Positions 12,474-53,810 of a stretch of DNA of 64,000 nt are shown here, piece by piece. Position numbers and translations under genes: made by a program. The notes beneath the pieces are model-generated. The model was given only the letters and a program-made list of their open reading frames with translations, made no database searches and was not told the origin of the DNA. Source of the stretch: a virus; IMG/VR virus record IMGVR_UViG_3300032132_000001, positions 42,573 to 106,572 of that record; one strand, 5' to 3'. Each line of letters begins with the position of its first letter. Within the stretch, counting starts at the first letter, position 1.

Positions 12474-12560
12474 TTCAACATGCCACGGCTCAGATCCTCA
12501 CCTCACCTTGCCGTTCCGAGCCGGGCCCTACCTAACCGAACCGCAACTTACCATACCACA

Positions 12561-13308: not shown

Positions 13309-13566
13309 CTAACAGGTGGACTTCGTTCCGTTCACGTTGATGCAATCTACAACTTCACACTCTTCTAGAAGTGCAACATCGGTATCTTCGACTCGGACCG
13401 ATACGATGCCCACTAGATCGAGGAAGTGATGCTTGTAGATTGGGATCGCTTTGTCATCTGCAAAAGCGAGAAACCTCTCCAGGTTGCGTCGGTTCAGTTC
13501 CTTCACCACTGTCTTATCCGGTGCTGATTCTACTCTCAGGTTGACCAGATAGTTGTACTCACTCAT
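13309..13566 (-). CDS. hypothetical protein
   Basis: track ORF trimmed to MSEYNYL start (ATG 13564-13566) preceded by GGAGAGGAGAGG. Confidence 0.4.
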   Translation of the reverse strand: MSEYNYLVNLRVESAPDKTVVKELNRRNLERFLAFADDKAIPIYKHHFLDLVGIVSVRVEDTDVALLEECEVVDCINVNGTKSTC

Positions 13567-16428: not shown

Positions 16429-16881
16429 CTAGTCGTCGCTCCCAACATGCCACGGCTGGATTGTGAGCCGAAGCTTTCCGGCGACTTCAGTGTCAACCGG
16501 GCCGAGCAACGCAGAGACAGCAGCGAGCAGCCCCTCTTTCATATCGCTCACCGACAGTGATTTCGGGTCTGACAGCTCCCTTGCATGAACCACGATGGTG
16601 TCACGGCCTGATGGATGGCCGACAAAGAACGCACCATAGTCTGGAGTCAACAGGAAGTTGATCTCAGCGCGCTGCCCAGGCAGGGCGTTGGGGAAGAGGC
16701 GAGCCCACACTGCAGTGTACTCTGGAATGAAGTGGAGTACGAATTCGGTTATCTCCATCTCCTCGCACAAACCCTCAAGAATCTTCTTCAGTTCGACAGC
16801 TTTGTCGTTATTCTTGACGTTGTGTGGAGAGAGATAGGTTTGGATGTTCTGTGCTGGGTCTAGTTTGGTTTTTCGTCCCAT
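16429..16881 (-). CDS. hypothetical protein; 14-mer motif forms its last codons (PWHVGSDD)
   Basis: track ORF. Confidence 0.45.
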   Translation of the reverse strand: MGRKTKLDPAQNIQTYLSPHNVKNNDKAVELKKILEGLCEEMEITEFVLHFIPEYTAVWARLFPNALPGQRAEINFLLTPDYGAFFVGHPSGRDTIVVHARELSDPKSLSVSDMKEGLLAAVSALLGPVDTEVAGKLRLTIQPWHVGSDD

Positions 16882-18926: not shown

Positions 18927-19376
18927 AGGTGTACTCCTTCTAAAGTCCTTGCTGGTACGAATGCTCGCCCAGCGTTTCCCAAAGTGCACAATTCGAAATA
19001 CGAGCCCTTTGGGATTATTGCGGCACAGGGCCGCTCCAACATGGCACGGAACTAAAGCTCTTTCCCGGTGAATAGAACAGGTAGCACCGTCCAGATTCTC
19101 CATCTCTGGTGCGGATCCTGGGTCAACGAGGAGGGAAAGAGCTTTAGTAGGGTGGGGAGCCATCACAGGTTTCGCATTTAGAGTGCGGCCTGCTTGCACA
19201 GACGTCCAGAATCTGAACCGTTACGCTGCTCGCAGCTTTGTCTCAAAACGGATTGCTCCGAGAAGAGAGCCCACAATGATGGCTCCCCGTGGGGAGGCGC
19301 GTTCGGGGTTCCCGCTTTCTTTTGGGTACTTCCTATATCCAGCGGCAGTCCTACTAGCACCTCCCCGTGACATCAA

Positions 19377-21317: not shown

Positions 21318-21923
21318 AGTCTCCAGTCTCCAAAAGGCGGGCTCGTCATTCCGTTTTGAATACGAGCAGCGGCTAGGAAATTTTCCTAGCCGAATCGGGC
21401 GGTACACACAGCATCAGAGAGCGTCCACTATCCCACTTGATGCCATATTGAATAAAATGACCACCCAGGTTTACGGGGTTTACGAAAGTCACCACTCCCT
21501 GGGTACCGATCGGGATCGGGTCTGGGTCATCGCGCATCGAGGTCATTTCGATGCGATCTCCTACTTGGAACATTCGGCCTCCAACATGCCACAGCTAATT
21601 GAGCAGCAATTGCTCGATCTCTTTGTGCAACTTGGGGTGCAATTTTGGATCGTTCCGGAGGATTTGCCACAAGAGGGCCTTTGGGACCTCGACGGTCTTC
21701 GATTTCCGCTTGCGATCCCGCTCTCGCTCAACAGCTTCGTCGTTCAGTCTCACCAGCGTCTGTAAATCGTGCATTAGTCCTTACCTCTCCTTACCTCTCC
21801 GCGCCAGTCCGAGCCTTGCGGTGCCTGGACTATCCAAACCATGCCGCGCCCTGCCCTTCTGAATACAAAGGCGGGGAGGTTTTACCCTCCCCGCCTCGCG
21901 GCACTTACGTACCGTTGCGGTTT

Positions 21924-23596: not shown

Positions 23597-23815
23597 TTAT
23601 TTCTTCCGATATGTGATGCGACCCTTAGTCAAGTCATACGGTGATAGCTCAACCGTTACCTGATCACCAGGGAGCACCTTGATGTAGTTCTTGCGCATCT
23701 TGCCTGAGAGGTGGCACATAACCACATTGCCGCCCTCCAACATGACACGGAACCGCGTGTTAGGTAACGCCTCGGTCACCTCGCCTTCTACGACAATCGG
23801 TTCTTCTTTAGCCAC
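23597..23815 (-). CDS. infA: translation initiation factor IF-1
   Basis: 72 aa near full-length match to bacterial IF1 ([23 protein letters not shown]...[34 protein letters not shown]). Confidence 0.9.
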
Positions 23816-27656: not shown

Positions 27657-29020
27657 TTCAACTCCTTCTTAGCCCATTCCATGGCCGATTCTTGGTCAGC
27701 GAAGGCTCCGTCCATCTGAGCTTCGTACGCTTTCTTCAGAAATACGCCAAGCTCTTTACTAGGCTCCATCAGCCCAGCCTCGATCAGATCACGGCCGTTG
27801 AGGATTCGCTTCGCGCCTTCATTGAGCACGCGCTTCTCACTTGCGATCTCAAGCATCCGAAGGCAGTTCTCCGACTTCCCACGAGGAAGAGGGGGGCGAC
27901 CAGAGTGGTCAGCTTCACACAGCCGTGCAAGCTCTACGATGCTCGCCGGCTCCAAACGCTTGGCAAGACGACGGACAGCTCTCGACGTAGCCGCTTGGTT
28001 GTGCGCCATGTGGTTCCCGACCATGGGCAGGATCTTATCCTTGTACTTCTTGTGACACCCAATTGAGTCCAGGAACTCTTCTGCGATAGGCACACCACCA
28101 CGCTCATGACCACGTGATCTCCACCTGCCATCTTCGAACTTGGTGTACTTTGCCTTGCCGACGTCATGGCACAGAGCGGACAGCACCAACATGCCACGAT
28201 CTTCCACATCAAGCTCGTCACGGATGGCGATTTCTGCTGCGGCATCGACCACGAACTTGGTATGAGTCCAAGCGCAGCCTTCAGGATGCCACTCGGGATC
28301 CTGAGTCACTCCGATCAGAGCGGTGAGCTGCGGGTAGAGATCGAGCCAGCAGGTGTCCTCCAGGAAGACCAGGCCAGAGCTTGGTTTGATGGACTTTGTT
28401 GCCCATTTCCACCACTCTTCCCACACTCGCTCAACAGGAAGGTCTTTGTACTCATCCTTCAGCGTGTTGCAGAGATGCGACGTGTCTGCCCAGACCGCCA
28501 TGTCAAATCGCCCTGTGAACTGCATCCCTCGCAGCACACGAAGAGGATCTTCGGCGAAAGCTGGAGATGTGTGGCGGAGGAGACCGTACTCGATATCCTT
28601 CAGCCCTTTGAAGAAGTCCAGTGTCTCGCCGGTCAGTGGATCGAAGGCTAGGGCATTCATGGTGAAGTCCCTGCGAGACGCCGCTTCCTCCGGTGTCATC
28701 GTCGGGTCGGGGTCCACCATGAAGCCCTTATGCCCACGCCCTCGCTTGCTCTCTCGTCGGGGAAGAGAGACATCGAACTCAACGCCACCTTCCTTGTACT
28801 TGAGTACGCCGAAGCTCTTGCCTACCGCATCGACCTTGCCCTTAGATTCCAGGAGTTCTTGGAGCTTATCGGGGCTCATGCCGTAGACTTCGACGTCGAT
28901 GTCCTTCCAGTCCTTGTTTCCCATCTGGGAATCTCGGACGGCACCGCCCACAACCAGGACACGGGCAGCGCCGTTCTCGGTCAGGTACCGAGCTAGTTCC
29001 TTGATCTTTTTCATGTCCAT
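27653..29020 (-). CDS. cca: tRNA nucleotidyltransferase (CCA-adding enzyme), class II head domain plus HD domain
   Basis: VVGGAVRD...DIDVEV head motifs, RRDFTMNA, HD..GK; start moved to MDMKK (ATG 29018-29020) after GAGGTG. Confidence 0.8.
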   Translation of the reverse strand: MDMKKIKELARYLTENGAARVLVVGGAVRDSQMGNKDWKDIDVEVYGMSPDKLQELLESKGKVDAVGKSFGVLKYKEGGVEFDVSLPRRESKRGRGHKGFMVDPDPTMTPEEAASRRDFTMNALAFDPLTGETLDFFKGLKDIEYGLLRHTSPAFAEDPLRVLRGMQFTGRFDMAVWADTSHLCNTLKDEYKDLPVERVWEEWWKWATKSIKPSSGLVFLEDTCWLDLYPQLTALIGVTQDPEWHPEGCAWTHTKFVVDAAAEIAIRDELDVEDRGMLVLSALCHDVGKAKYTKFEDGRWRSRGHERGGVPIAEEFLDSIGCHKKYKDKILPMVGNHMAHNQAATSRAVRRLAKRLEPASIVELARLCEADHSGRPPLPRGKSENCLRMLEIASEKRVLNEGAKRILNGRDLIEAGLMEPSKELGVFLKKAYEAQMDGAFADQESAMEWAKKELK

Positions 29021-30485: not shown

Positions 30486-30855
30486 CCTCGCCTCCCCATA
30501 GGAGATTCTCTACAATGTCGCCGAAATCGTTTCTCATGATGTCACAATCAACGATGGGCACACCATATTCTTCCAGTAACGCCTTCTGCTTGCCCCGCCC
30601 AGACGGGTTGTTGGAACACAGCAAAACTGGAATACTTAGCTCGACCAGGAATTTCTCAGCCACCAACATGCCACTCATCAGCGGCATATCGTGATCAAGA
30701 ATGATCAGGTCCCAAGGGTACGGCACCCTACGGAGGTAGAAGTCACACTGCTCGTCGCCATGGGCGAAAACCAGCGTCAAGTATCTCCGCTCCAGAAGGT
30801 GCCGTATCTTGGTGAACCGGATCGGCTGGTCGTCGATCCAGAGCACATGTTTCAT
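30469..30855 (-). CDS. stand-alone CheY-like receiver (REC) domain protein
   Basis: VLWIDDQ..., phospho-acceptor-like ILDHDMPLMSG, LLCS, conserved Lys region. Confidence 0.6.
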   Translation of the reverse strand: MKHVLWIDDQPIRFTKIRHLLERRYLTLVFAHGDEQCDFYLRRVPYPWDLIILDHDMPLMSGMLVAEKFLVELSIPVLLCSNNPSGRGKQKALLEEYGVPIVDCDIMRNDFGDIVENLLWGGEDGKGS

Positions 30856-31795: not shown

Positions 31796-31903
31796 TTAGT
31801 CCTCTTATATGCCGAGTAATTTTGCTCGGCTGTTTCCATTGAGATACGGCCAGGAGAGAGGGAGAGCCGCCCAACATGGCACGGCTCCCCTCTCCATGCC
31901 CTC

Positions 31904-33100: not shown

Positions 33101-33367
33101 CTAGTAGTAAGTGTGTCGCCATTCCTGACCACACCTACGACACCCGTGGGCTTCACCACCAGTGTCAGGCGTGCACCATGAATCGACGCACTCTACGTCG
33201 TGCCCTTTCCATCGACACGTCAAGTCCAAGACGCTAGACTTGACATAGGACCAGAGCCAGCTGAGGAAGATCACCGCTGTGTGCGGCGGATCCTTACCTT
33301 CTTGCCAGGCGTACTGATGCTCCGCCTGCTCCCAACTCCGCCAATCTTGACGGATCGCTTCCAACAT
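33101..33367 (-). CDS. Cys/His/Trp-rich hypothetical protein; start codon lies inside the 14-mer motif
   Basis: track ORF. Confidence 0.4.
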   Translation of the reverse strand: MLEAIRQDWRSWEQAEHQYAWQEGKDPPHTAVIFLSWLWSYVKSSVLDLTCRWKGHDVECVDSWCTPDTGGEAHGCRRCGQEWRHTYY

Positions 33368-33378
33368 GCCACACCTCG

Positions 33379-34970: not shown

Positions 34971-35266
34971 TACCAGACATCCTCGCTAAACAGACCAACA
35001 TGTGCGTTCATTTGGTCTTCTTTCTTCACTTGGCCGGCAAGGCGAGCCAGCCGTGCAGCTGGCTTTCTGCGGACGAAGTCGCCGGATTCGGTCAGGAACC
35101 CCTGTTCCCTGTTGATCGGGGGTTTAATCCCTTTCTCCGTCACCATCATGTGAACGATGTCGGCGTGACGAGCAGGAGCAGGAAGGGAATACACCACGCC
35201 ATCCTTCCACAGGATCGCTGCGGCGACGATCTTACCGTAGTCTTTTCTCATTGGCCCTCCCAACAT
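34970..35266 (-). CDS. hypothetical protein; ATG is the ATG of the 14-mer motif (MLGGPM...)
   Basis: track ORF. Confidence 0.45.
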   Translation of the reverse strand: MLGGPMRKDYGKIVAAAILWKDGVVYSLPAPARHADIVHMMVTEKGIKPPINREQGFLTESGDFVRRKPAARLARLAGQVKKEDQMNAHVGLFSEDVW

Positions 35267-35272
35267 GACACG

Positions 35273-37180: not shown

Positions 37181-37441
37181 TTATTTCTCCACGTGCTCGC
37201 GTTCTGCGAGAATGCCCTTGATCAGGTCGTACCTCTCTTGCCAGCTCCGATAGCGGGCAGCATCTCCTTCGACCCAATCTTCATACGCAGCTGCACCACA
37301 ACCACAACTGCACTTTGAGGAAGAACTTCTGAGTGCCCTGACTTTCTTGAAGACGGCAAGAAGGCGCTTGGTAGGCAACTTCCTCAACTGCTCTTCCTTC
37401 AAGTCCAATGCGCCTTGGGGTTCCATGGTCGTCTCCAACAT
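37181..37441 (-). CDS. small hypothetical protein (start at motif ATG MLETTMEPQ, or 37426)
   Basis: track ORF trimmed. Confidence 0.4.
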   Translation of the reverse strand: MLETTMEPQGALDLKEEQLRKLPTKRLLAVFKKVRALRSSSSKCSCGCGAAAYEDWVEGDAARYRSWQERYDLIKGILAEREHVEK

Positions 37442-37452
37442 GGCACGGCTAT

Positions 37453-38574: not shown

Positions 38575-38657
38575 AGCCACCTCCTTGTTAGGATTCTGTT
38601 CCAACGCGGGCAAGCCCGCCCCCAAAGGGGCGGGCGAGCTTACCCAGCTAGGAAGGA

Positions 38658-39068
38658 CTAGATGCAGTCGGCTTCCGACACGTCCGCACCGCCGTCCTCG
38701 ATCCGCTCGACCGTAGCCGAGACGAGAGCGATCGGGGTGGCCTTGTAGACGCGCTTACCCTTCTTGCCACCGACGCCAATCTTCGCCGCCTTACGCATAC
38801 GATCCCAGGCCGTCTGACCGGCTTCGTCCTGGTGATGCCGCCAGATGCCGACATCCTGCATGCGGAGCGTCGCTTCCTTCTTGTCCTTGAACCGGACAAC
38901 GAGGAGCAGATGGAAGTTACCCGGACGCGAGCCCAGGTGACCCTTCGGCGAACCGGCCAGACGCAGCAACTCCTGCAGGTTACAAACCCGCATCTGCTTC
39001 TGATCGTGCTCGACGATAGCTTCGGTAGTGTCGAACTTCAGGAAACCAACAGTCTTCTTCGAAGGCAT
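38658..39068 (-). CDS. P-family paralog 4 (MPSKKTVGFLKF leader, HHQDEAG core, acidic tail)
   Basis: track ORF. Confidence 0.5.
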   Translation of the reverse strand: MPSKKTVGFLKFDTTEAIVEHDQKQMRVCNLQELLRLAGSPKGHLGSRPGNFHLLLVVRFKDKKEATLRMQDVGIWRHHQDEAGQTAWDRMRKAAKIGVGGKKGKRVYKATPIALVSATVERIEDGGADVSEADCI

Positions 39069-39266
39069 GGGAACTCCATGTTCTTAGGCGAAGAAGTCCT
39101 ACTGGAGGCGGGACCTCCCCGCCCAACCTAGCTTCCCCTGCTCAAGCTTGAGCGGGGATTTGTGTCCCACAACATGTGGGAGCACAACATTCGGCCGTGA
39201 GACCGAATGCTGTTGACATTGACACAACGCCGATCGACGAGTGCCTGTCAACATGCCACGAATGGC

Positions 39267-39342
39267 TGGCGGGTCATACGGGATTTGAACCCGCAACACA
39301 CGGTTTTAGAGACCGTTGCTCTACCAATTGAGCTAATGACCC
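39267..39342 (-). tRNA. amber-suppressor tRNA (anticodon CTA, reads UAG), class I, CCA encoded
   Basis: GGGTCATTAGCTCAATTGGTAGAGCAACGGTCTCTAAAACCGTGTGTTGCGGGTTCAAATCCCGTATGACCCGCCA; perfect 5-bp anticodon stem ACGGT/ACCGT, loop CTCTAAA. Confidence 0.75.
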
Positions 39343-39658
39343 AGGAGGAGTGGTGGACCTTTCTCATCAACCGAAGGTGAAGAGCCTAGGTTCACCCCCG
39401 ACGCGGATACTCGATTAAGTGGACCCCGTAGCAACGACGACACACCCCCACCACTCCTTGACTAAGAAGAAAGAAGAGCCGACCTTCAGGTGAGAAGACG
39501 TATAACAAACTTGTCCCCCTTTACCGGTCACTCACCCCGGCGATCAACCCAGAGCGGATCAGGAACTTAGGCGGGCTCGGACGTCTCCCTCGGCTCTTCC
39601 TTCCAATACGCCGCAGCCCGACCCCCATACAGCAGGGTCGGGCATTGGCTAGGAGTTG

Positions 39659-40528
39659 TTAGGCCGTCTTGCGACCCTTCTTCCCCTCACGCTTCTCGGC
39701 GGCGATGATCTCGAACGCCTCGTACAGCGCGTTCTTCTTCCGCGCCACCTTGCTGCGCTGTCGTGGCGGGCTCTCGATCTGCAGCAGGTGCCGCCAGCCG
39801 GCGGGGGTGAGTCCGCTTGCCGTGGGCTGTCCACTGCTGGGACGCTCGAACATGACGGGCATCTGTGCGGCCCGCGCGTCACGCCGCGCCTGCGCTTCCA
39901 CCTCACGCGCCTCGCGGCGCAGAGCGTCACGCTCCCGCTTCTTCTCCTGCCGGGACACGTCGTCCTCGGCCAGCCGCTTGGCCAGCATCGGCTTCGCGCC
40001 GCCGTGGTGGAGTCCGCGCTTGACGCACAGCTCCTTCAGCTTGCCGGTCGCGTCCTTCTCGTACCGCTTGGCGAACTTCGCCACCAGCTTCTGCCGCTTC
40101 CGCCGATCCTTCTCCTCCTGGCTGATGCCGGGACGGAAGAAGCGGTCGCAGTAGAACCGCAGCTGGCTGTCGGAGAGGGAGGCCGGTCCCCACCCCTTCG
40201 GTGCGTCTTCGACGTTGCAGAACAGCGTCCTCTTCAGCGCGGCGATCTTGTCGCTCTCCATGCGGAGCGCGAACAGGAGCGCCTTCCGCTCCAGCGGGTC
40301 GCCCTTCTTGACCGCCCGCACGCCCTGGACCAGGACGAGCTTCGCGATCTCCTTGGCGGCCTGGTTCTGGCCACTGGCCTTCTTCGCCTCGGCGATACGC
40401 TGCGCCTTCGACGGGCCGGTCTTCTGCGGAGCGGCCTGCTGGTTGCTCCGCTTCTTCCGACGCGCCTTCTTCCGCTCGCGACCCAGCTTTCCCTTCTCTG
40501 CGTGCTGCTTCTCGTTCTTCGACGACAT
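39659..40528 (-). CDS. highly basic Lys/Arg/Ala-rich hypothetical protein
   Basis: track ORF in locally GC-richer DNA; preferred over antisense ORF 39656..40582. Confidence 0.45.
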   Translation of the reverse strand: MSSKNEKQHAEKGKLGRERKKARRKKRSNQQAAPQKTGPSKAQRIAEAKKASGQNQAAKEIAKLVLVQGVRAVKKGDPLERKALLFALRMESDKIAALKRTLFCNVEDAPKGWGPASLSDSQLRFYCDRFFRPGISQEEKDRRKRQKLVAKFAKRYEKDATGKLKELCVKRGLHHGGAKPMLAKRLAEDDVSRQEKKRERDALRREAREVEAQARRDARAAQMPVMFERPSSGQPTASGLTPAGWRHLLQIESPPRQRSKVARKKNALYEAFEIIAAEKREGKKGRKTA

Positions 40529-40670
40529 GTCATTCCCCTGGTAGGGACTTCTCGGTTACAACGCCCACAGTTGGGCAATTGATTCATTGTTCGGTTGACC
40601 AGGGTTGGACACAGCACGCTTCCAACAGCTTGTATCCCGTCCCAACATGGGACGGGCACAAGCCAAGGAA

Positions 40671-40898
40671 CTAAACTTCGTATTCGAGGATGTCGATGGT
40701 GACGAGCCAGTTCCACGACTCACCACCTTCCCACGAACCTTCTTTCTCTTCAGTGAAGGTGAGATTGGTATCGTCTATCTCCTTCTGGACGATACCACGA
40801 GCCTCGGCAGGATCTCGGGTCACATCGACCACACGACCGTCACCACCATCGACGCCGTGGTTGTCCGATCGGTGGATGACGTAGACCTTCACTTCCAC
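40671..40898 (-). CDS. hypothetical acidic protein
   Basis: track ORF. Confidence 0.4.
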   Translation of the reverse strand: MEVKVYVIHRSDNHGVDGGDGRVVDVTRDPAEARGIVQKEIDDTNLTFTEEKEGSWEGGESWNWLVTIDILEYEV

Positions 40899-41167
40899 GG
40901 CCGGGAGTACGGCTGTGCCGGATCGTATTCCGGATTGGGTTCGGGGATTCGAAGCTCACCGATCCTCTCGTACGCCGTGTCCTCGACCAAGCACGACAGC
41001 CGGTGGATCTGCCAGCTGAGGTAGTCGAACGGCCTGGTGAGCCAGTACGACGCCTCTTGGACGAGCCGGCTGGCCCGATCCAGAGTGAGGACGATCAGTT
41101 GCCAGAACAGGCGGTACCGCTGCTTGCTGGGGTTCATTGAACCCTCCTTGTAGGGGTTTCGTTCCAA
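40889..41167 (-). CDS. hypothetical protein (likely start MNPSKQRYR at 41137)
   Basis: track ORF; AAGGAGGG RBS. Confidence 0.4.
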   Translation of the reverse strand: MERNPYKEGSMNPSKQRYRLFWQLIVLTLDRASRLVQEASYWLTRPFDYLSWQIHRLSCLVEDTAYERIGELRIPEPNPEYDPAQPYSRPWK

Positions 41168-41216
41168 CAGGGCTTATCCCGCTCCCTGGTGGGAGCGGGC
41201 ATCACCCTTGAGATTC

Positions 41217-41609
41217 TTAGCCGGCGAGAACCTCATCGATCTCACGTTCCAGCTCCTTCTGAGCCAGCACCGCCGCGTAGACCTCGCTGTGGTACTCGTC
41301 CCGCAGCACCATCGGTGCGTCCGGGTTGAGTGCCAGCTCGATCTTGCTGACGATGTGGTCGTGGGGATCCTCGCCGAAGAGATCGTCGGCGATAGCCTTG
41401 GCGGTGAAGAGGCGCATCTCGTCCACCGGGACGGTCCCGTTGACCGGGAACTCACGGCGCTGGACCGTCTTCCCCTTGGCCCTGACCTCGATGCCGACGA
41501 GATCGCCGTAGGTCGTCTTGGGTGACTGACACGAGAACCTCTCGGGCGTGATCAGAGCGATCACGTAGCCGAGGAATCGCATGCCGGCACCAGTCTTGGG
41601 GTTACGCAT
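41217..41609 (-). CDS. hypothetical protein; 9-codon upstream ORF beginning at motif ATG
   Basis: track ORF. Confidence 0.45.
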   Translation of the reverse strand: MRNPKTGAGMRFLGYVIALITPERFSCQSPKTTYGDLVGIEVRAKGKTVQRREFPVNGTVPVDEMRLFTAKAIADDLFGEDPHDHIVSKIELALNPDAPMVLRDEYHSEVYAAVLAQKELEREIDEVLAG

Positions 41610-41743
41610 AGAACAAACACTCCTGGGTCTAAGTTACGTGCAGATGGACACAACGCCCAACATGTCACGCTAATGGGACCAAGGCAAGCCTTGGCCTCGC
41701 CACCTGTGTGAGTTAGGAGCGAACACAGGATCGCTCGTCCAGA

Positions 41744-42058
41744 TCAGTCGTCATGTGGACCCATTCTGGACTGATGGGATGGTTCTGACTCAGGCAGTTT
41801 GGGTTTCACCAACCTCGCCTTGAGTCTGTCGATTCCGATCCTGCCACAGGCTCGGATGCAACCCTTGCACCCGCAGCAGTTCACCGCTTCTCGCATCCCA
41901 GTTGGGCGATGGAGAAGACGGACAACCCCTCGGGCAGGGTGATTGCACCCCGGTGCCGCGCAGACAGGTCTCGGTTTCAGCGTCGGTCCGTTGATGCAGT
42001 AGGAGTTGGCGGGGACCGGCAAGACCGCCAACAAGCACAATACGATCAGTTTCTTCAT
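41744..42058 (-). CDS. secreted Cys-rich protein with signal peptide
   Basis: MKKLIVLCLLAVLPVPANS followed by many Cys; start moved to ATG 42056-42058 behind GGAGGTG. Confidence 0.5.
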   Translation of the reverse strand: MKKLIVLCLLAVLPVPANSYCINGPTLKPRPVCAAPGCNHPARGVVRLLHRPTGMREAVNCCGCKGCIRACGRIGIDRLKARLVKPKLPESEPSHQSRMGPHDD

Positions 42059-42254
42059 GGTCACCTCCAACAGGCTAAATCCCGCCCCCTGATGGGGGCG
42101 GGCAGATCAGTTTAGCCGTTGATCCATGACTTGGCGGATACGATCTCTCTTCTTTCTGATCTCACCGCCTTGCTTGAGCGCCTTGCGGATCGCCTCCTCA
42201 TCGTAGAGACAGAGGAGGAGACCGCTCGGCATCGCAACCACGATCATTCTCATC

Positions 42255-42497
42255 TCACTCTCCTTTGCAGCGGAAGGGGATCTTGGAGCAACCGAAGAGT
42301 ACGTTGCCGAAGATCAGGTACCAGTGGAGCCCGTCCTTGACAGCCGAGTTCAGCATGATCCCAACCAGCGTGTCGGCGCACATGGAGTTGGTTTTCCCTC
42401 CACCGTCTCCGTTGTCGTAGTAGGCGGTCAAGTGGTGGCCGATGCTATCCTTGATCTCGGCCACAGTTGACACCCCACTGTGCAGCTCGCGGCTCAT
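42255..42497 (-). CDS. hypothetical protein
   Basis: track ORF. Confidence 0.35.
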   Translation of the reverse strand: MSRELHSGVSTVAEIKDSIGHHLTAYYDNGDGGGKTNSMCADTLVGIMLNSAVKDGLHWYLIFGNVLFGCSKIPFRCKGE

Positions 42498-42928
42498 GCT
42501 TCCGCCCCGATCAGCTTACCGTCGAGATGGTCCATCTCGTGCTGCATCACCCTGGCTTCCCACGGTGACTGGGACTGGTGCCGCTTCTTCCGTCCCTTGG
42601 AGTCCTCGTACTCGATGAGGACGATGGGGAAGCGCAACACCTTGACGGCCCTGTCGGGGAGGGAGAGGCAGCCTTCGATGGCGTACTCCCGCTTGCCCCT
42701 GGCCCTGTGCAACACAGGGTTGAAGAAGACGCGTTCCATCCCCTTCACCCCACTGGCGTTCATCACGAAGAACCGCCGAGTGATGCCAACCTGCGGTGCG
42801 GCCAGACCAGCTCCGTTCGCCGCATACATCAGGCCGATCATCTCACGGACGGTATCGTCGTGGACGCTTGGATCCGCATGGGAGCACACTTGCTCCAGCA
42901 CAGGATCCGGATGGATGACGATTTTCAT
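42494..42928 (-). CDS. def: peptide deformylase
   Basis: GxGLAAPQVG, EGCLSLP and HEMDHL motifs; start MKIVIHPD at 42926-42928 behind GGAGG. Confidence 0.85.
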   Translation of the reverse strand: MKIVIHPDPVLEQVCSHADPSVHDDTVREMIGLMYAANGAGLAAPQVGITRRFFVMNASGVKGMERVFFNPVLHRARGKREYAIEGCLSLPDRAVKVLRFPIVLIEYEDSKGRKKRHQSQSPWEARVMQHEMDHLDGKLIGAEA

Positions 42929-43006
42929 CCTGGATTCCTCCTGTAGAGTCCTTTTCCAACAGGCTAAACCCCGTCCCAACATGGGACGGGCTTCAACCCT
43001 TGCCGA

Positions 43007-43663
43007 CTAGATCCTGATGCCATAGTCCTGAGTTTTGGTCATCAGGTAGATCTTGTGGGCGATGGACGCTGCTTGGCCCCAGAGATGCCTGTGGAGCGCT
43101 TCCCAGTCGGTCGTGTCGCTGCGCCGGATCGGGATTTCCAGCAGGACGTTCTCACCCTCGTACATGAGGATCTTGGCCGTGATGTTGTCGGGGAGGGAGT
43201 CTTCCTCATATCCCAACTGGATCAAGTGCTTGTCGGCCACTGCGAACCGAGTACACTGGAGTGGCGGTTCGCAGAACTGAGGGGTGGGGAGGCCGAGTGA
43301 CTTGCTGTACATCTGGGACAGCCCTCGGGCAAGCACGATGTCCGGAGACACCCCACCGCAGCCGTAGCCGTAGTACAAGCCGACCCTTTCCCAGCCGTTC
43401 GGCTGTTCCACTTCCGGCATGTCGAGGTACTTGCGGCAGACGTTGACGATATGGAGAAGCTTGAGCCGACGCTTACGCCGACGTTCCCCACCCCATCGTC
43501 CCCCTTCCACGGCCACCGTGCAGACCGCGTACCACTGGTACGTCTTCTTGAGTTCGTTCTGGAGCTTGGTGGTGAACCAAGTCAGGATCGCCAGCACCTT
43601 ATAGGGCGCGGTTCCTGCTGGCACGAACTGGTGTTGGTAAAGGTGTTGGCGTAGCACAGCCAT
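43007..43663 (-). CDS. hypothetical protein
   Basis: track ORF trimmed to MAVLRQ (ATG 43661-43663). Confidence 0.45.
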   Translation of the reverse strand: MAVLRQHLYQHQFVPAGTAPYKVLAILTWFTTKLQNELKKTYQWYAVCTVAVEGGRWGGERRRKRRLKLLHIVNVCRKYLDMPEVEQPNGWERVGLYYGYGCGGVSPDIVLARGLSQMYSKSLGLPTPQFCEPPLQCTRFAVADKHLIQLGYEEDSLPDNITAKILMYEGENVLLEIPIRRSDTTDWEALHRHLWGQAASIAHKIYLMTKTQDYGIRI

Positions 43664-43723
43664 ACCCCCGGATAGAAAAGTTGTCAACTACGCGATGCCC
43701 GACCCAGGGGGTCGGGCAACACG

Positions 43724-43969
43724 CTACCGAGTGGGGGAGAGACCTCTCTTGGTCTTGGAGCCGTACTCCAGCTTGAAGTGCCTCTCCAGAGCCGAGCCCA
43801 GGAGGCACATCTCGTCGCCCCAGGAGGCATCCGTCTGCACGGACCGAGCTTCCAGCAGGGCCAACTTCACCTCTGCCAGGACCTTAGCCAGGTCCTTTTC
43901 CACCCAGGAGTGTCCTCCACGGACGAAGCGCGCCAGAATGCACGCCAGTTTCATCGCGTCGTCCATCAT
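43724..43969 (-). CDS. hypothetical protein
   Basis: track ORF. Confidence 0.4.
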   Translation of the reverse strand: MMDDAMKLACILARFVRGGHSWVEKDLAKVLAEVKLALLEARSVQTDASWGDEMCLLGSALERHFKLEYGSKTKRGLSPTR

Positions 43970-44043
43970 TCATCCTTCCGTTATAGAAGTGTTCCAACAG
44001 GCCATAGCCCGTCCCCAACATGGGACGGGCAATGACCTTACTG

Positions 44044-44250
44044 CTAGCCGAGCTTGATGAAGGTGAATCCCCAATCGGGGAGCTGGTCGGCGCAGGGCTC
44101 GCTACGCGTCGAAACCTCATCCTTGGAGGGAAGAGGGCCGTGCACCTTCTTGTCGTACTGCGTCCATCCCCGGCCAACCCACCGGGAGCAGACGCCGCTG
44201 GCCAACTCCCAGCGGCACACCATGACGTGGAGGACTTGGATGATGTCCAT
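44044..44250 (-). CDS. hypothetical protein
   Basis: track ORF. Confidence 0.35.
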   Translation of the reverse strand: MDIIQVLHVMVCRWELASGVCSRWVGRGWTQYDKKVHGPLPSKDEVSTRSEPCADQLPDWGFTFIKLG

Positions 44251-44251
44251 C

Positions 44252-44920
44252 TTAGACCCTCGTCAGCTTGGCGTCATCGGCGCTGGTGCCGGTGTACTGG
44301 TACGGCGACTTGTTGAAGCGGTACGGACCGTGGCCGAAAGCCCACGATTGCCGCTCCCAGAAGCCCTCGACCTCGTCCCAGAAGAGATCCGTCTGCACTT
44401 CCTTGCAGTACGCACCTTCCTGGTTGAGGATGAACATCGCCTTCACCGGGCCCTCGTAGACCACGCCGGGATGATTGAGATCGATCCACTTGGCGTTGTA
44501 GAGGATCTTGGCTCGCCACAGGTTGGTGTTGAACTCCCTGGCGATTTCCCTCGTGGCGATGCGGAACTGGCAGTCGATGCACGCCGTGTAGATCGACTCC
44601 CCGATCATCTGGAAGTATTCCACTTCCTTCCCGCAGCAGACGATCCGGCTTCCGGCCTGTAACTTCCACATCAGCTCGGAACGTTCGTCGTAGGCTCGGA
44701 GATCGGACTGTGTTGCACCGGGACCGCACACCCAGTCGTGCATATTACAGCCACCTGGGCCGTTACGGGGCTGAGCCGCCAGATCCTTCCGACCCTGTTG
44801 GAGCTTGTCCGCTATCTCGCCCACCCTGGACAGGTCCAACTGGTCCCGTCGCAACAGGTAATCGGGCATCGGACCCGTCCCCAGCACCCAGAGGATGAGT
44901 GCCATGCTTCTCTCGAACAT
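44252..44920 (-). CDS. hypothetical protein
   Basis: track ORF. Confidence 0.45.
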   Translation of the reverse strand: MFERSMALILWVLGTGPMPDYLLRRDQLDLSRVGEIADKLQQGRKDLAAQPRNGPGGCNMHDWVCGPGATQSDLRAYDERSELMWKLQAGSRIVCCGKEVEYFQMIGESIYTACIDCQFRIATREIAREFNTNLWRAKILYNAKWIDLNHPGVVYEGPVKAMFILNQEGAYCKEVQTDLFWDEVEGFWERQSWAFGHGPYRFNKSPYQYTGTSADDAKLTRV

Positions 44921-45006
44921 CTTTCATCTCCTTTGGATGAGTTCTGTGTCAACTACGCTAAACCCGATCCCGCCAACATGGCACGGGATCGGGCAAGCGC
45001 AACAGA

Positions 45007-45207
45007 TCAGATGAACTCGGGTACATCGGAGGGGTCAGGGAGTTGGATCCGCTGGGGATCGATGAGGAGGATCTTGTGGTCGATCTTCCTCTCTTTCTCC
45101 AGCTGAGCTTCCACGGCACACAGTCGGACGTGGAGGTAGATGATGACGCCACCGAGCACGGCGACCACCATCAGGAGGATCAGTTGATCCACGATTTTGA
45201 GCTTCAT
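45007..45207 (-). CDS. small membrane protein
   Basis: track ORF with TM helix. Confidence 0.4.
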   Translation of the reverse strand: MKLKIVDQLILLMVVAVLGGVIIYLHVRLCAVEAQLEKERKIDHKILLIDPQRIQLPDPSDVPEFI

Positions 45208-45404
45208 CCGGTCATCTCCAGACGGGGTTGGAGGTAGATGGGTTGAGTGATCTTGCCGGTCTTCCGGAGTTCAGCAACCTCCTTGATGATCTCAGAAGAT
45301 CTCAAGTCGATTTCCGGCTCGAAGAGGTTCCAGCACTTATCACTCAGCGGCCGGTCCTGGTCGGGATTCCTCAACCCCATGACCCATGGGACTTGTGCGT
45401 GCAT
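45204..45404 (-). CDS. hypothetical protein
   Basis: track ORF. Confidence 0.35.
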   Translation of the reverse strand: MHAQVPWVMGLRNPDQDRPLSDKCWNLFEPEIDLRSSEIIKEVAELRKTGKITQPIYLQPRLEMTG

Positions 45405-45881
45405 TTGCGATCTCCTTTCTTCGCAGTCGTGTCAACAGTCTGAAACCCGCCCCCGGAGGGGCGGGCTGCCTTTATCGGCAAATCAAACTATCGAGTCATC
45501 ACGCCTCCCTGACCTCACCGTCCTGCGCAGAAGGATGCTGGTCGCCAACTTAATGCTGCCCGTTCCACATCGCATGGAACGACACCAATCTGACACAGGA
45601 CGCAAGATCCGAAGAGAAGGTTCTAGTATTGTCAACTCCAAGAATCCCGTCCCCAACAAAGGGGACGGGCAGGAGAAGCCTACTTCCAGACGCCGATTGA
45701 CTGGAGGATGATGCTGGCGATCACGATCGGCCCATAAGCCAACGCCGCGTACAAGCAGTACACGGGAAGGATGGGGACCAACATCAGGTATGACAGGATA
45801 CGCATTCGCAACCTCGGTTCACTAGAGAGTTATCTCGGACAACAGCTCTTATCCCGCCCCCAGGAGAGGGCGGGCAATCTA

Positions 45882-46187
45882 TCACGGCGTTGGGGGAACG
45901 TGGAGCTTCTCTGCCTCTTTCTTCAGCAGGTCCAGCATCTGACCGTGCAGCTGCTGCCCCATCCTGGTCCCCTGCAGCACCTCCAAGCAGTTCACTTCGG
46001 GGGCACCCAGGAGGCGGTAGAGTCGGTTGAAGATCAGAGCAACTTCATCCGACTCGAAGTGCTCGACGCTGACGAGATAGTGGTCCAACCACTCCCACAG
46101 CTCCCGGGTTCCCTTCATCACCATCGTCCGTGCGAATTGCAGCCGCAGCGGCTCGTGGGTGAGAAGAGAGGTTAGTACCATTAGCAT
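45882..46187 (-). CDS. hypothetical protein
   Basis: track ORF. Confidence 0.4.
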   Translation of the reverse strand: MLMVLTSLLTHEPLRLQFARTMVMKGTRELWEWLDHYLVSVEHFESDEVALIFNRLYRLLGAPEVNCLEVLQGTRMGQQLHGQMLDLLKKEAEKLHVPPTP

Positions 46188-47107
46188 CTGCCCCTCCTGA
46201 GCAAAGAGATGTTGAGCTTCTTACTGATAGCTCTGTCAACAGCATAAAGCCCGCCCTCCAAAAAGGAGGGCGGGCCACCATTCACCTAAAAACAAGCACC
46301 CGCCACAGATTCATTATGGCAGCAGCTGTCCCCGTGGGCGGGCAATTGGGTGACAACCTTCACGCTGCAACTCTGGCGGTTCAAACCGCGTCGGTCTACA
46401 TGACGTCTCCTCGCTTTACGCTTAGGGTGCTAGTTGACAACTGGTTGAATCCCGACCCCATAAAGGAGTCGGGCGTTACCCATGTTAGACAGGTTGGATT
46501 TGGTGGGAAGTTGAATGTGTTTGGAGCTTATGGGGGAGGAGGGGGAGAGATCGGCCTCTCCGTCTTTTTCCTTGCCCTTCCCCGCTTGACAAGAGTCCAT
46601 TACAATACCTGACCACCGGTTGAGTACCAGGAAAGCAGGGAGAGCAAAGGAGAGGGCAGGAGAGCTGGTATCTTCGGGAACCCGAAAACCTCTGCGCGGG
46701 GCAATGGCTCCTATCTGTGACCTAATATTGAGCCTCGCACTGTCCCCCACTCTTATGCAAAAGGGGTCTACCCCTCTCTTCAGTGCACTCGTGTGATATT
46801 CGAGCACCCACTGAGTGTTGACAGTACATTGAGCTTCGCCCTTCTTCTCCACAGGATCCCTCATATCCCCAACATGACACGCGCATTCCTCCCTGGGGGA
46901 ACAATCTCAATGTGACCTAGTGGGCTAAGTCCCTAGTTGACTATTGCTCCACCCGTAAGGGCGTTAGTTAACAGGCACTTATCAGCGCCTTATCAACCTA
47001 ATATTGGAGGAGGGACTTGACACTAGACCGAGCAAACATTGACTCACCCACTCCTATATGAGCCCGGTTTGAGTCAGGTAGGGTCTGACTGACAATCTAT
47101 AGAAAAA

Positions 47108-47136
47108 GGCCCGCCCCCACATAGTAGGGGCGGGCC
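47108..47136. terminator. GC-rich palindromic hairpin GGCCCGCCCC-n9-GGGGCGGGCC (one of about 13 similar units)
   Basis: read directly; others at about 38614-38635, 39135-39157, 40636-40656, 41178-41199, 42081-42102, 42970-42990, 43697-43717, 44008-44029, 44963-44993, 45446-45465, 45646-45669, 45853-45874, 46249-46275. Confidence 0.6.
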
Positions 47137-47163
47137 TCGGGTACTGCGGTCGCTAGGGGTCTC

Positions 47164-47523: not shown

Positions 47524-47546
47524 GGTGTACAGTCCTTTCCTTGTAC

Positions 47547-47700
47547 GGGGGACCGTCCCCTTTTAGGGGGACTAGTCCCCCTAGCGATAAACATACTATC
47601 CACGGCGGGACACTCCCCCCCACAGATGGGTGGGGGGGCCCGCCGCCCGCCCCCCGGCAACGGGCGGGGGCGCGCCCCCGGCGGGGAGGACCTGGTTACC
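47547..47700. promoter_or_regulatory. divergent intergenic region with three near-perfect G/C palindromes and G-tracts (bidirectional promoter and/or replication-associated element)
   Basis: GGGGACCGTCCCC, 18-bp AGGGGGACTAGTCCCCCT, and CCCCCCCAC-n6-GTGGGGGGG, followed by GGGCGGGGGCGCGCCCCCGGCGGGG. Confidence 0.45.
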
Positions 47701-47768
47701 AGCTCTCCAGCGCGACAATATATTCCTCACGCGGGGCCCTTCCATATCTTCCTTCGTATTTCAGCCAC

Positions 47769-48062
47769 ATGGAAGCTCGCGGCACACGGTGGATGGTAGA
47801 AGAGGAAAGAGAGGTATTAAGGACCGTACCTTGGAACGAAGACTTGTGCAGCCCAGACTTCAACCCAGCTGGGCTACTGATAAGCATGCATAGGGAGGGA
47901 CATAGGTCTGAATACTTCTTCATAGACCCAGAAACCACAGTCTGGCGGTTAGGAGTATATTACGACGACCCAGGCCAACGTGCATGGCACTGGAAGAAAC
48001 TCTACGTAGTAAACGCACGCTGGCAGAAAAGAATCCGCCAAGACGTCGCAGAGATACTATGA
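47769..48062 (+). CDS. DP-motif small protein family member (LCSPDFNPAGLLISM)
   Basis: ATG 47769 inside track ORF 47541..48062. Confidence 0.5.
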   Translation: MEARGTRWMVEEEREVLRTVPWNEDLCSPDFNPAGLLISMHREGHRSEYFFIDPETTVWRLGVYYDDPGQRAWHWKKLYVVNARWQKRIRQDVAEIL

Positions 48063-52823: not shown

Positions 52824-53170
52824 CCCAAAGAGACCATCTTTGCATGGGAGAAAGAGTGTCACAATTACTTCTATGGGGATGGCGGATGGGCAGTAGAGAT
52901 GTTATGACCATAGAGGAAGGTCGTATCAACCAATCAGACCCCAGTTTCAACCCAGATGGTATAGTGCTATACGAGAGCGGTGGCGACAATGCCACCTATG
53001 GATTCATGAACTACTATTTCCTTTGCAAAAAGACCGATGACGTATATGCATTGGAAAAATGGGGTAGCAATTTGGAAGAGGGCGAATATTATTACCACAT
53101 GTTAGACAAATCTCGTCTACCCGACGAGCGCGTGGAAGAAGTCAGAGAAATCATATCAGCATTGCTATGA
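52814..53170 (+). CDS. DP-motif family member (QSDPSFNPDGIVLYESG)
   Basis: track ORF. Confidence 0.5.
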   Translation: MAIAQRDHLCMGERVSQLLLWGWRMGSRDVMTIEEGRINQSDPSFNPDGIVLYESGGDNATYGFMNYYFLCKKTDDVYALEKWGSNLEEGEYYYHMLDKSRLPDERVEEVREIISALL

Positions 53171-53502
53171 GTGGAAAATTCCAGTGGGGTTTCTTGTACA
53201 AGATAGAAGAGGGCGATTACGATCTTGTCGGGGTCCCATTCACAGCACAAGAGCATCACGACCCCTCTTTCAACCCCACCGGTATCATAGTTACTATGAT
53301 AGTGCACGAACGCAGAGACTTAGGAGCCGTGGGAAGAGAGCCTAAGCGTTTCTACGTGCACACGGACAGCCAGAGAGTATTGGAAGCACACATGTATGGT
53401 GGTAAGATCGGCGGAAACGAATACCACTACAAGCTCACCGGTCTAGAACTATTAGATGAGGACCGCCAGGGTATCTTAGACATTATTCAGGATCTCTTGT
53501 AA
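53167..53502 (+). CDS. DP-motif family member (HHDPSFNPTGIIVTMIV)
   Basis: track ORF. Confidence 0.5.
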   Translation: MSGKFQWGFLYKIEEGDYDLVGVPFTAQEHHDPSFNPTGIIVTMIVHERRDLGAVGREPKRFYVHTDSQRVLEAHMYGGKIGGNEYHYKLTGLELLDEDRQGILDIIQDLL

Positions 53503-53810
53503 TGCCAGTACTAATGTGGGCTAAGCGGGGAAACCGGGGCGACTACATCAACACAATAGAGATGGACGACCCCGATTGTTTCGATCCGGACTTCAAGCCC
53601 GATGGTATAGTAGTAGAGAAGTGCATCAAGCTTCCTAACAGCAATCAAGTGATCACTACCTATTTCTTCGTGGACGCGGAAACGGAAGAGATGTGGAGAA
53701 CTAAGAAGTTCAAGACCTGCAAAGGGTCTACTTGTTTCCACATCCTCCATCAAGAAGAGGACAGGTATCTGAAGATGGTCGCAATGCGTAAGATCAGGAG
53801 GAATCTATGA
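53502..53810 (+). CDS. DP-motif family member (DPDCFDPDFKPDGIVVEK)
   Basis: track ORF. Confidence 0.5.
   Translation: MPVLMWAKRGNRGDYINTIEMDDPDCFDPDFKPDGIVVEKCIKLPNSNQVITTYFFVDAETEEMWRTKKFKTCKGSTCFHILHQEEDRYLKMVAMRKIRRNL

Follow-up and report, generated by a model that had tools for sequence, protein, structure and literature searches.

The stretch of DNA analyzed here, 64,000 nucleotides (nt) of IMG/VR virus record IMGVR_UViG_3300032132_000001 (positions 42,573 to 106,572; hereafter the window), is part of a 397,419-bp phage contig, as an exact protein match established (run SRR9663116); with ~15 kb of flank added to the 64-kb window, the sequence examined amounts to ~80 kb of this 397-kb contig. 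The minus strand carries, from ~0 to 47.5 kb, a single long leftward gene block, and the genes switch to the plus strand at ~47.98 kb. Within the block, between 38.6 and 46.5 kb, lie 14–15 co-oriented minus-strand copies of a short unit that follows one plan: stop codon, an 8–11-bp G/C stem (CCCGnCCC/GGGnCGGG), 9 nt, and a box of the form [G]TTG[G/A][A/C]A. This array of hairpin-plus-box units, together with a wider motif of the leftward block, CGTGnCATGTTGR, to which the box appears to be linked, is the subject of this report.

The leftward block holds ten tRNA genes and a translation and tRNA-repair set consisting of a CCA-adding enzyme, an Rnl1-type RNA ligase, Thg1, PTH2, initiation factor 1 (IF-1), a SpoU methylase, polynucleotide kinase and peptide deformylase (PDF). 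Its G+C content rises to 58–61% at 38–48 kb, against 50–57% in the rest of the block to the left and 46–50% in the rightward block, a shift that may reflect a different origin of the array genes or different constraints on them. Searches of four libraries left the array proteins as ORFans, apart from PDF and a weak SAP-domain match. No match was obtained when the array was compared by megablast with 50,697 phage records, which leaves the phage without a near relative among annotated phages, and protein-seeded searches of IMG/VR with an array protein and the RNA ligase returned no relatives. In a large protein search a neighboring protein of 226 aa matched itself only, the RNA ligase found the parent 397-kb contig and one 2.5-kb relative (74% identical), and PDF found bacterial-type relatives only, at no more than 48% identity; the best named of these, at 45–48%, belong to Planctomycetota, a weak hint as to the host.

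Layout of the unit array

Perfect G/C stems behind most of the small minus-strand genes had been described in an initial annotation of the sequence, and a reading of the minus strand combined with an exhaustive hairpin scan found perfect stems of 7–11 bp at all the positions named there. The 64-kb window contains 20 perfect G/C-rich hairpins, 16 of them at 38.6–47.7 kb. The box said to lie 3' of the hairpin is likewise present, at exactly 9 nt beyond the conserved 3' arm. When both parts were combined into one pattern, GGGNCGGG-N9-KTTGNM with at most one mismatch, 17 matches were obtained (16 on the minus strand) against 1.27 expected, and none of 100 shuffles reached 17; an unbiased repeat finder returned the unit as its top and largest family, with ten copies in register. 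The repetition claimed at the outset is thus real, while its count of about 13 is better given as 12 strong units and two to three degenerate ones (46458, 45566, and 45860 with TTGTCC). Scans of other sequence collections with the composite pattern stayed at chance level, with two single matches in IMG/VR and 62 single matches among metagenome contigs, none of the latter having more than one relaxed copy.

The units occupy the gaps of the array almost completely. Twelve of the 14 array gaps of at least 20 nt contain a unit and the other two the related motif alone; no unit is found in any of 39 gaps elsewhere in the leftward block, nor in the 15 kb of extra flank. Junctions at which genes overlap or abut (ATGA type) are free of units, which therefore partition ~21 small genes, leaving one to three together in each group. 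The hairpin starts 4–22 nt after the stop codon. Counted from the T of TTG, the start codon comes after 52, 37, 31, 32, 28/31, 24/30, 31, 12, 30, 97 and 30 nt, so that it lies at 30–32 nt in six to seven units, with a Shine-Dalgarno (SD) sequence between in most units, and the end of the box is usually 22–24 nt from the start. These start codons agree with independent gene calls on the parent contig. The further claim that SD and ATG follow 12–25 nt later describes about nine units and fails for three, which are followed by non-coding sequence, another unit or a tRNA.

Read in the direction of transcription, the array opens on the minus strand with the degenerate unit u46458 (46434..46473), in which the stem CCCGACTCC/GGGGTCGGG, with one U.G pair, stands 9 nt from GTTGTCAA. 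Unit u46257 (46233..46275) has an 11-bp stem, GCCCGCCCTCC/GGAGGGCGGGC, then 9 nt and GTTGACAG, and its gene starts at 46187; u45860 (45836..45874) pairs CCCGCCCTC with GGGGGCGGG, 9 nt ahead of GTTGTCCG, with the start codon at 45805. The stem CCCGTCCCC/GGGGACGGG of u45653 (45629..45669), followed at 9 nt by GTTGACAA, leads into non-coding sequence and the weak unit u45566 (45541..45582), a short hairpin GTTCCA..TGGAAC with GTTGGCGA 9 nt beyond it. A stem CCCGCCCC/GGGGCGGG, 9 nt and GTTGACAC make up u45453 (45429..45465), which is followed by an SD and by ATG 45404 at 31 nt from TTG. The same box, GTTGACAC, recurs 9 nt behind the stem CCCGATCCCG(T)/(G)CGGGATCGGG of u44970 (44946..44993), whose loop includes a perfect copy of CGTGCCATGTTGG and whose gene begins with ATG 44920. 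Unit u44015 (43991..44030) combines GCCCGTCCC/GGGACGGGC, with CGTCCCATGTTGG, and after 9 nt GTTGGAAC, upstream of ATG 43969/43966, and u43705 (43681..43718) combines TGCCCGACCC/GGGTCGGGCA with GTTGACAA, upstream of a start at 43663 (ATG) or 43657 (GTG).

The PDF gene (ATG 42928) is preceded by u42977 (42953..42990), with the stem CCCGTCCCA/TGGGACGGG including CGTCCCATGTTGG, 9 nt, GTTGGAAA and an SD. In u42088 (42064..42102), where CCCGCCCCC/GGGGGCGGG is followed at 9 nt by GTTGGAGG, the box lies over the SD and ATG 42058 opens an open reading frame (ORF) not called in the source annotation. This ORF of 104 codons (41744-42058, minus strand), directly after the unit, has a signal-peptide-like N-terminus (MKKLIVLCLLAVLPVPANSYC...). 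A stem with a double compensated change, CCCGCTCCC/GGGAGCGGG, distinguishes u41185 (41161..41199; 9 nt, GTTGGAAC, ATG 41137). The stem of u42977, again with CGTCCCATGTTGG, returns in u40643 (40619..40656), where it has a 9-bp outer helix and is followed by GTTGGAAG; here the start codon, ATG 40528, is 97 nt away. Beyond u39624 (39600..39643; stem GCCCGACCC/GGGTCGGGC, 9 nt, ATTGGAAG) come 316 nt of non-coding sequence and a suppressor tRNA, and the last unit, u38622 (38598..38635; stem GCCCGCCCC/GGGGCGGGC, GTTGGAAC), precedes AAGGAGG and ATG 38574. Variants of the box cluster along this direction, TTGTCA at ~46.4–47.1 kb, TTGACA at 43.7–46.2 kb and TTGGAA at 38.6–44.0 kb. A palindrome around a HindIII site at 39135-39157, which had been listed with the hairpins of the array, does exist, with one bulge, but it is no member of the family, as its stem is different and no box stands in register with it; it is located in a hairpin-rich non-coding stretch after the tRNA.

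Covariation of the hairpin and the absence of a U-tract

Stem pairs were counted with a stem-anchored script. The core CCCGnCCC/GGGnCGGG encloses loops of 3–9 nt that have no common sequence. Its variable pair, pair 5, occurs as C:G six times and as T:A and A:T four times each, and is thus compensated in 14 of 14 units; u41185 adds its double compensated change. The wobble cells, three in number, each show T:G on the coding strand, corresponding to U.G in the sense RNA and A.C on the other strand. Since these wobble pairs fit the sense RNA only, they and the covariation point to a hairpin that acts as an RNA element in the leftward transcript. Unit segments folded with their flanks reach −22 to −31 kcal/mol, and in at least six units an outer helix pairs the 9-nt spacer with the 5' flank.

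Three parts of the unit stand out as conserved in sequence: the stem, the C-T with which the spacer ends, and the box, in which TTG never varies and 12 of the 14 units have A at position 6 of the TTGNNA hexamer. The rest of the spacer and the 13 nt past the box vary in sequence and are fixed in length. Units are 60–85% alike overall, and even the best pairs are only 71–73% identical over 44–52 nt, indicating a common plan kept by selection rather than recent copying. The units are therefore supported as real elements under selection.

The likeness among units could be explained differently, as the mark of recombination linkers, that is, homology patches used in the gain, loss and shuffling of ORFan genes, with any regulatory role secondary. 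The array is made of small ORFans that match no family in the four libraries, its G+C content of 58–61% departs from the 46–57% around it, box variants are clustered as local gene conversion predicts, and two unit pairs are alike over 44–52 nt; moreover, the promoter-early stem-loop (PeSL) cassettes of T4-type phages do serve such a role (PMC2839356). However, at 60–85% likeness and with short identical runs the units would be a poor substrate for homologous exchange, their conservation sits in stem pairing, spacing and box instead of being even, which points to function, and no relative was found in which the gain or loss of a cassette could show. A linker origin is compatible with the other readings discussed below, and as the source of the likeness we think it quite improbable.

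Repetitive extragenic palindromic (REP) elements are U-less G/C palindromes past genes that stabilize the upstream mRNA; they carry a GTAG head, occur in both orientations and go with RAYT transposases. The array units resemble them in being U-less G/C palindromes after genes, but the GTAG head, the two orientations and the RAYT dependence are not seen. Two other kinds of repeat were considered and set aside. CRISPR-like arrays have near-identical repeats of 28–37 nt, spacers of 30–40 nt and cas genes; the units are 60–85% alike with 0.2–1 kb of genes between them, and there was no match to a Cas family, so that a CRISPR-like repeat processed by Cas6 was rejected. An integron attC site is an imperfect palindrome with paired outer R''/R' sites and is accompanied by an integrase. 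Both GTTGGAA and GTTGACA fail the RRRY part of R' (GTTRRRY), there is no upstream inverse core except a partial TTCC in two units, and no integrase family was found in the window. A search of Rfam at gathering and at permissive thresholds returned tRNAs only and no family matching the units.

The first description of the units as terminators does not hold in the canonical sense. They do place a G/C-rich hairpin a few nt past the stop codon, on the transcribed strand and with very favorable folding energy, as canonical intrinsic terminators do, but the 7–9-nt U-rich tract that should follow directly 3' of the stem is absent: the 8 nt after the stem hold one to four T (mean 2.4), and in place of the tail and downstream DNA of a terminator the units have a conserved box that is not U-rich. 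A terminator scan requiring at least five T in 8 nt rejects all units, which are thus not canonical intrinsic terminators. The sole array-type hairpin that it accepts, on the minus strand at 47106..47138, joins a stem of the unit type, GGCCCGCCCC/GGGGCGGGCC, to TTTTTCT and has no box in register; it heads the array and closes an isolated gene of 119 aa that lies upstream, at the head of the block. What a hairpin of the U-less kind may do has been addressed in bacteria: purified mycobacterial RNA polymerase (RNAP) does not terminate at hairpins without a U-tract in vitro (PMC3993855), and U-less stem-loops are frequent at the stable 3' ends of transcripts in many bacteria (PMC13613805).

The box and the wider motif CGTGnCATGTTGR

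A promoter of the sigma70 −35/−10 type had been dismissed at the start on grounds of spacing, and this is borne out both by a consensus scan of 36.5–48.5 kb, which gave no minus-strand match, and by the geometry of the units. The SD begins ~19 nt after TTG, which leaves no room for a −10 element and a transcription start site upstream of it; a start set by the box as a −35 element would fall at or beyond the start codon. At 16–18 nt past the box no −10-like hexamer is present; those 17 nt downstream read GGTGGC, GGGTTC, AATCCA, GATGAA and so on. The only sigma70-like match of the 12-kb scan is on the plus strand at 47696-47724, in the divergent region 47524-47983.

In predicted transcripts the box scores 0.41 for being unpaired, compared with 0.46 for other windows, and it is therefore not preferentially single-stranded, which gives no support to a single-stranded RNA target. 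The stretch from hairpin to start codon is 53–56% AT, compared with 41% for the array. A box that is not kept unpaired and an AT-enriched stretch behind it are compatible with a start signal at the DNA level, without proving one. Two other ideas about the box were dropped: an attC-like extended palindrome that includes it is seen in only one or two units, and a pairing switch between box and SD, judged from a reading of the sequence, is inconsistent across units.

A wider motif had escaped the initial annotation. In several hairpins the loop and 3' arm read CATGTTGG, and this string, with 19 copies in the window (all on the minus strand, at 3.8–46.9 kb) against ~2 expected, is the most over-represented 8-mer of the leftward block (19 copies against 1.2 expected there; z ~16). 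The full motif is cCGTGnCATGTTGGr, 13–15 nt; written as CGTGNCATGTTGR, it is represented on the minus strand by 14 perfect copies and by six that deviate at one or two positions, and on the plus strand by one weak match. Beyond the array CGTGnCATGTTGR occurs thirteen times, each time on the minus strand, at 37435-37447, 35260-35272, 33361-33373, 31871-31883, 30663-30675, 28186-28198, 23737-23749, 21581-21593, 19036-19048, 16442-16454, 12475-12487, 9499-9511 and 3821-3833. Within the array a copy, CGTGACATGTTGG (41657..41669, minus strand), stands by itself in a gap free of units, and ATG 41609 follows 54 nt downstream. Thirteen of 21 copies are intergenic, in a block where gaps make up 12% of the sequence, and they usually lie 5–26 nt past a stop codon and 0–120 nt ahead of the next start. 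Two more were found in the next 8 kb of the leftward block (flank positions 13319 and 17455), and one perfect copy is present in the 2.5-kb relative contig (944-956), inside the end of a non-homologous gene and 36 nt before the next start. A literature search with the motif as a string returned primers only.

Two copies adjoin tRNA genes. The copy at 12475-12487 ends 1 nt before the 5' end of tRNA-Leu(GAG). The other is a hybrid, CGTGGCATGTTGACAG, in which the motif is combined with a TTGACA-type box; it occupies 39248..39260 on the minus strand as CGTGGCATGTTGA(CAG) and starts 7 nt past the 3' end of the suppressor tRNA (anticodon CTA, an amber suppressor; 39267..39342, minus strand), which itself lies within the array between u39624 and this hybrid. 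Because the motif flanks tRNA genes, it is not a translation signal, and the hybrid, together with the common core TGTTG, links it to the box of the array. A second TGTTGG core also occurs ~20 nt upstream of the box in four to five hairpins. As between a phage-specific promoter and a processing site, the wider motif leans toward a signal at the level of transcription.

The plus-strand block has none of these motifs and has a recurrent motif of its own, GGGTCCCATCG. There, GGGTCCCA(TCG) is found in six copies against 0.36 expected (48444, 49442, 50463, 53231, 55022 and 55772), three of them 25–28 nt upstream of an ATG with no obvious SD and at least one within the coding sequence of a metallophosphoesterase; it may represent a different promoter class. 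Two further strings of the leftward genes were examined as candidate signals and discarded. TATCTAA upstream of tRNAs is not over-represented as a promoter would be, many copies being gene ends, and AGGTAAGG (minus strand, ten copies against 0.8 expected, mostly 4–5 nt before start codons; 1182, 1254, 1692, 21786, 21796, 24411 and elsewhere) is an unusual form of the SD, employed by some leftward genes that lie outside the array.

Sites that are short, asymmetric and repeated in one direction recall the stoperators known from Cluster A mycobacteriophages. These are asymmetric, 13 bp long and set in short gaps in one orientation, and the immunity repressor of a temperate phage acts on them; CGTGnCATGTTGR, too, is an asymmetric 13-nt site that is co-oriented and intergenic. 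By analogy, the box and the second TGTTGG core could bind a phage protein that, in one orientation, blocks or licenses elongation through an early block, giving a temporal shut-off. Such an operator array would account for sites that are strictly co-oriented with transcription and mostly intergenic yet tolerated in coding sequence, and for the four units in which two cores are ~20 bp, or roughly two helical turns, apart; the L5 stoperator, moreover, contains TGTCAA, to be likened to the exact TTGACA of the box. Operators would not account for the hairpin, for its RNA-type covariation or for the exactness with which the box keeps 9 nt from it, however, and neither a candidate repressor nor any sign of a temperate lifestyle was seen in the ~80 kb. 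Stoperators have no hairpin and require a repressor, and none of these features is seen here. We consider operators very unlikely.

The junction of spacer and box also has the look of a pause site. The stem-end G (−10) is invariant, the last two spacer positions (−2/−1) favor C-T (each base in 9 of 14 units) and +1 is G in 13 of the 14, a geometry that fits the elemental pause consensus G-10 Y-1 G+1, reportedly described by Larson and by Vvedenskaya in 2014. The unit could then be a composite pause or termination signal only, with RNAP halting 9–10 nt past the stem so as to attenuate read-through or to be synchronized with ribosome loading, and with no new initiation. Known pause signals are indeed multipartite and include downstream DNA (PMC6336406), all units sit after a stop codon, and a unit-type stem heads the canonical terminator at 47138-47106. 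Yet conservation of +2 to +7 (TTGRMA) goes far beyond any known requirement for downstream DNA, pairing of the spacer in the outer helix moves the effective end of the stem in at least six units, and neither the constant distance from box to start nor the wider motif at hairpin-free sites and beside tRNAs is explained. On balance a pause signal alone is an unlikely account.

Alternatively, the units may be sites of RNA processing and stability, where a long polycistronic RNA is cut near the box by a host or phage endoribonuclease that measures from the hairpin, and exonucleases trim back to the hairpin; the products would be stable messages for single genes, each protected at its 3' end by the hairpin and beginning with a uniform leader. 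Functional parallels exist in the RNase III sites of the T7 early region and in insulators of the Cas6/Csy4 type. The hairpin as an RNA-level element, with its covariation and sense-only wobble pairs, agrees with such a role, as does the lack of both a U-tract and a sigma70 promoter at the units; the exact spacing of hairpin and box suits a stem-measuring enzyme, and in at least six units the outer helix sets the box at the foot of an extended stem. The wider motif, 1 nt before one mature tRNA 5' end and just past the 3' end of another tRNA, is found at two places of processing, and U-less stem-loops mark trimmed 3' ends in many bacteria (PMC13613805). Against it, the box is not preferentially unpaired (0.41 versus 0.46) and departs, on our reading of the sequence, from the RNase E-type pattern RN/WUU. 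Stems of 9 bp are too short for RNase III. Cleavage at the four perfect copies of the motif that lie in essential-looking coding sequences would destroy those mRNAs, and no nuclease candidate was found among the array proteins. Processing seems to us rather unlikely.

Interpretation, known systems and neighboring features

Our favored reading, to which we would give a probability of about 0.4, is that the units are expression-punctuation cassettes, in which the hairpin would mark or attenuate the 3' end of one message and the box would be a phage-specific start signal, not of the sigma70 type, for the next. In RNA transcribed leftward, the G/C inverted repeat forms a hairpin of great stability just behind the stop codon that closes each group of one to three genes. 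With no U-tract, this hairpin would be a barrier or attenuator and not a full terminator, fixing and protecting the upstream 3' end and limiting read-through. The box, with the AT-rich stretch and the SD behind it, would signal where the next expression unit starts. A transcription machinery directed by the phage would read it in the DNA, as a promoter or re-initiation element made of a single block, and initiation at the box would yield short uniform leaders carrying the SD. The box itself may be an array-specific variant of a CGTGnCATGTTGR signal family that would mark the 5' regions of genes and tRNAs across the leftward block, box and motif then being recognized in common. As whole gaps are built to one plan, the cassettes would also insulate the small ORFan genes from one another, and they could serve in addition as homology patches for shuffling. 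Because its proteins are ORFans and it follows a leader of ~900 nt beside a divergent control region, the array is read as an early-type or hyperplastic block.

A bolder form of this proposal is a hairpin-coupled expression signal of a kind not described so far: a phage-directed polymerase would start at the box only where this stands at a fixed 9 nt behind a G/C hairpin, which would tie termination to re-initiation within a cassette of ~40 nt, or a phage enzyme would cut the transcript at the box, measuring from the hairpin. In either event CGTGnCATGTTGR would represent phage promoters or processing sites of a new class, from which tRNAs would also receive ready-made 5' ends. We hold this to have a small chance of being right.

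Several observations weigh against the punctuation reading. Box and wider motif have only the 5–6-nt core TGTTG(G) in common, so that their joint function is presumed. Four perfect copies of the motif fall within real coding sequences (CCA enzyme, IF-1, receiver domain); these always read Met-Leu, a choice of frame that needs no special explanation since the other frames contain rare or stop codons. The fixed 9-nt distance to the hairpin is equally expected of a pause or termination signal, or of a nuclease that measures from the hairpin. The box has ~12–14 bits, an information content too low for it to act as a promoter by itself in a genome of 400 kb if neither the hairpin nor the position contributes. 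No RNAP or sigma gene was seen in the ~80 kb examined of the 397-kb contig, and no second genome with the array was found in searches of phage records, IMG/VR, metagenome contigs and proteins. Three units have no following gene. In u42088, finally, the box overlaps the SD and ATG is 12 nt from TTG, so that a start just past the box would produce a leader without an SD.

The closest known system is that of the PeSL cassettes of the T4-type phages RB49 and phi1, stop-to-start intergenic cassettes with a stem-loop and an SD that are clustered among small ORFans (Arbiol et al. 2010, PMC2839356). The array repeats this arrangement: a G/C stem-loop, a promoter-like element, an SD and a start codon fill the interval from stop to start, densely among small non-essential ORFans and in the orientation of the genes. 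PeSLs, however, contain a complete sigma70 −35/−10 promoter with an AT-rich upstream region, vary in the position of the stem-loop and fall into five subclasses (PMC2839356). The array units have no −10 element; only a −35-like TTGACA/TTGGAA is present, and hairpin and box are fixed at 9 nt. Promoter, terminator and mini-circle activities of PeSLs have been measured, and gene shuffling mediated by them has been described in T4-type phages (PMC2839356), whereas the array units are known here from sequence. With the −10 element absent and the geometry fixed, we place the array among the regulatory intergenic cassettes of large phages, outside the PeSL family.

Start-associated sequences (SAS) and their extended form (ESAS), from Cluster K mycobacteriophages, are a 13-bp motif 3–7 bp from the start codon that contains the SD (Pope et al. 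2011, PMC3203893). They are lineage-specific and of unknown function, with an inverted repeat ahead in half of the cases, and stoperators are mentioned in the same work (PMC3203893). Like SAS/ESAS, the motifs described here are short, asymmetric and in one orientation, all copies being on the minus strand of a non-structural leftward block, before genes and with an upstream inverted repeat. They differ in that the array box ends 22–24 nt upstream of the start with a separate SD after it (only the box of u42088 overlaps an SD, and no box lies at 3–7 bp with an SD core), in that the array stems covary and ESAS repeats lack covariation of an RNA hairpin, and in that the wider motif also flanks tRNA genes. 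In the giant phages phiKZ and 201phi2-1, stage-specific promoter motifs are known, an early class of which precedes small hypothetical genes (PMC11512511). There, as here, separate blocks have different short co-oriented motifs near gene starts, but those promoters are AT-rich or of TATG type, with mapped start sites and identified phage polymerases, and the motifs of the present phage are unrelated to them in sequence. Promoters of T7-like single-subunit RNAPs, read by a polymerase that the phage itself encodes, are near-identical blocks of ~17–23 bp ending at the start site; the box has about 10 conserved positions, and the wider motif is a block of 13–15 nt with 14 perfect copies.

The organization of gene expression in uncultivated huge phages is essentially unknown, and this genome shows a clean and testable grammar: one canonical terminator, 14–15 cassettes that would insulate small ORFans and a suppressor tRNA, and a 13-nt motif running through a 47-kb translation and tRNA-repair block. 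If 3'-end formation is indeed coupled to a new start within ~40 nt and without sigma70 elements, the PeSL idea would reach beyond T4-type phages, and synthetic operons would gain a compact insulator part of natural origin. The motifs also provide handles for a search for the cognate polymerase or nuclease and for related phages.

Several features border on the array. At its head, between the canonical terminator and the first strong unit, a non-coding leader of ~900 nt (46188..47105, minus strand) includes u46458, one copy of CGTGTCATGTTGG (46869-46881), TTGTCA-type boxes and three 24-nt repeats. The repeats are of the type AG[T/G]G.G..GCTCAAT......GTCA. Two copies of AATATTAGGT, two exact copies of ACCTAATATTG and a stretch rich in pyrimidines also lie in the leader, which is a candidate control region or non-coding RNA. 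Both flanks of the suppressor tRNA, 316 nt (39343-39658) and 198 nt (39069-39266) on the minus strand, are non-coding and highly structured. In them GAAGAGCCGA and TCGGCTCTTC are complementary at long range (93% over 14 nt), AGGAGTGGTGG and CCACCACTCCT pair perfectly over 11 nt, and four or five hairpins, the HindIII palindrome among them, stand in tandem; the flanks have no Rfam match, and these could be precursor or non-coding RNA structures. The suppressor tRNA and in-frame fusions of ORFs had raised the possibility of TAG recoding, which was rejected, as each TAG directly precedes a new start with a paralogous N-terminus; TAG ends 36 of the 110 leftward genes.

Between the two gene blocks, the divergent intergenic region 47524-47983 contains several G/C hairpins, CCCCCCCAC..GTGGGGGGG, CCCGCCC..GGGCGGG and a SpeI palindrome, GGGGGACTAGTCCCCC. 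On the far side of the array, positions 1-37300 of the minus strand form a dense translation and tRNA-repair module with nine further tRNAs, a PARG-type domain, an M50 peptidase and a receiver domain. The plus strand carries a family of small paralogous genes (52937-53608, 57988, 61457 and elsewhere) that have in common the peptide motif DPxFxPDGIV, with tandem copies 323 nt apart, and the N-terminal motif M-x-P-E/D...DDPDVL.

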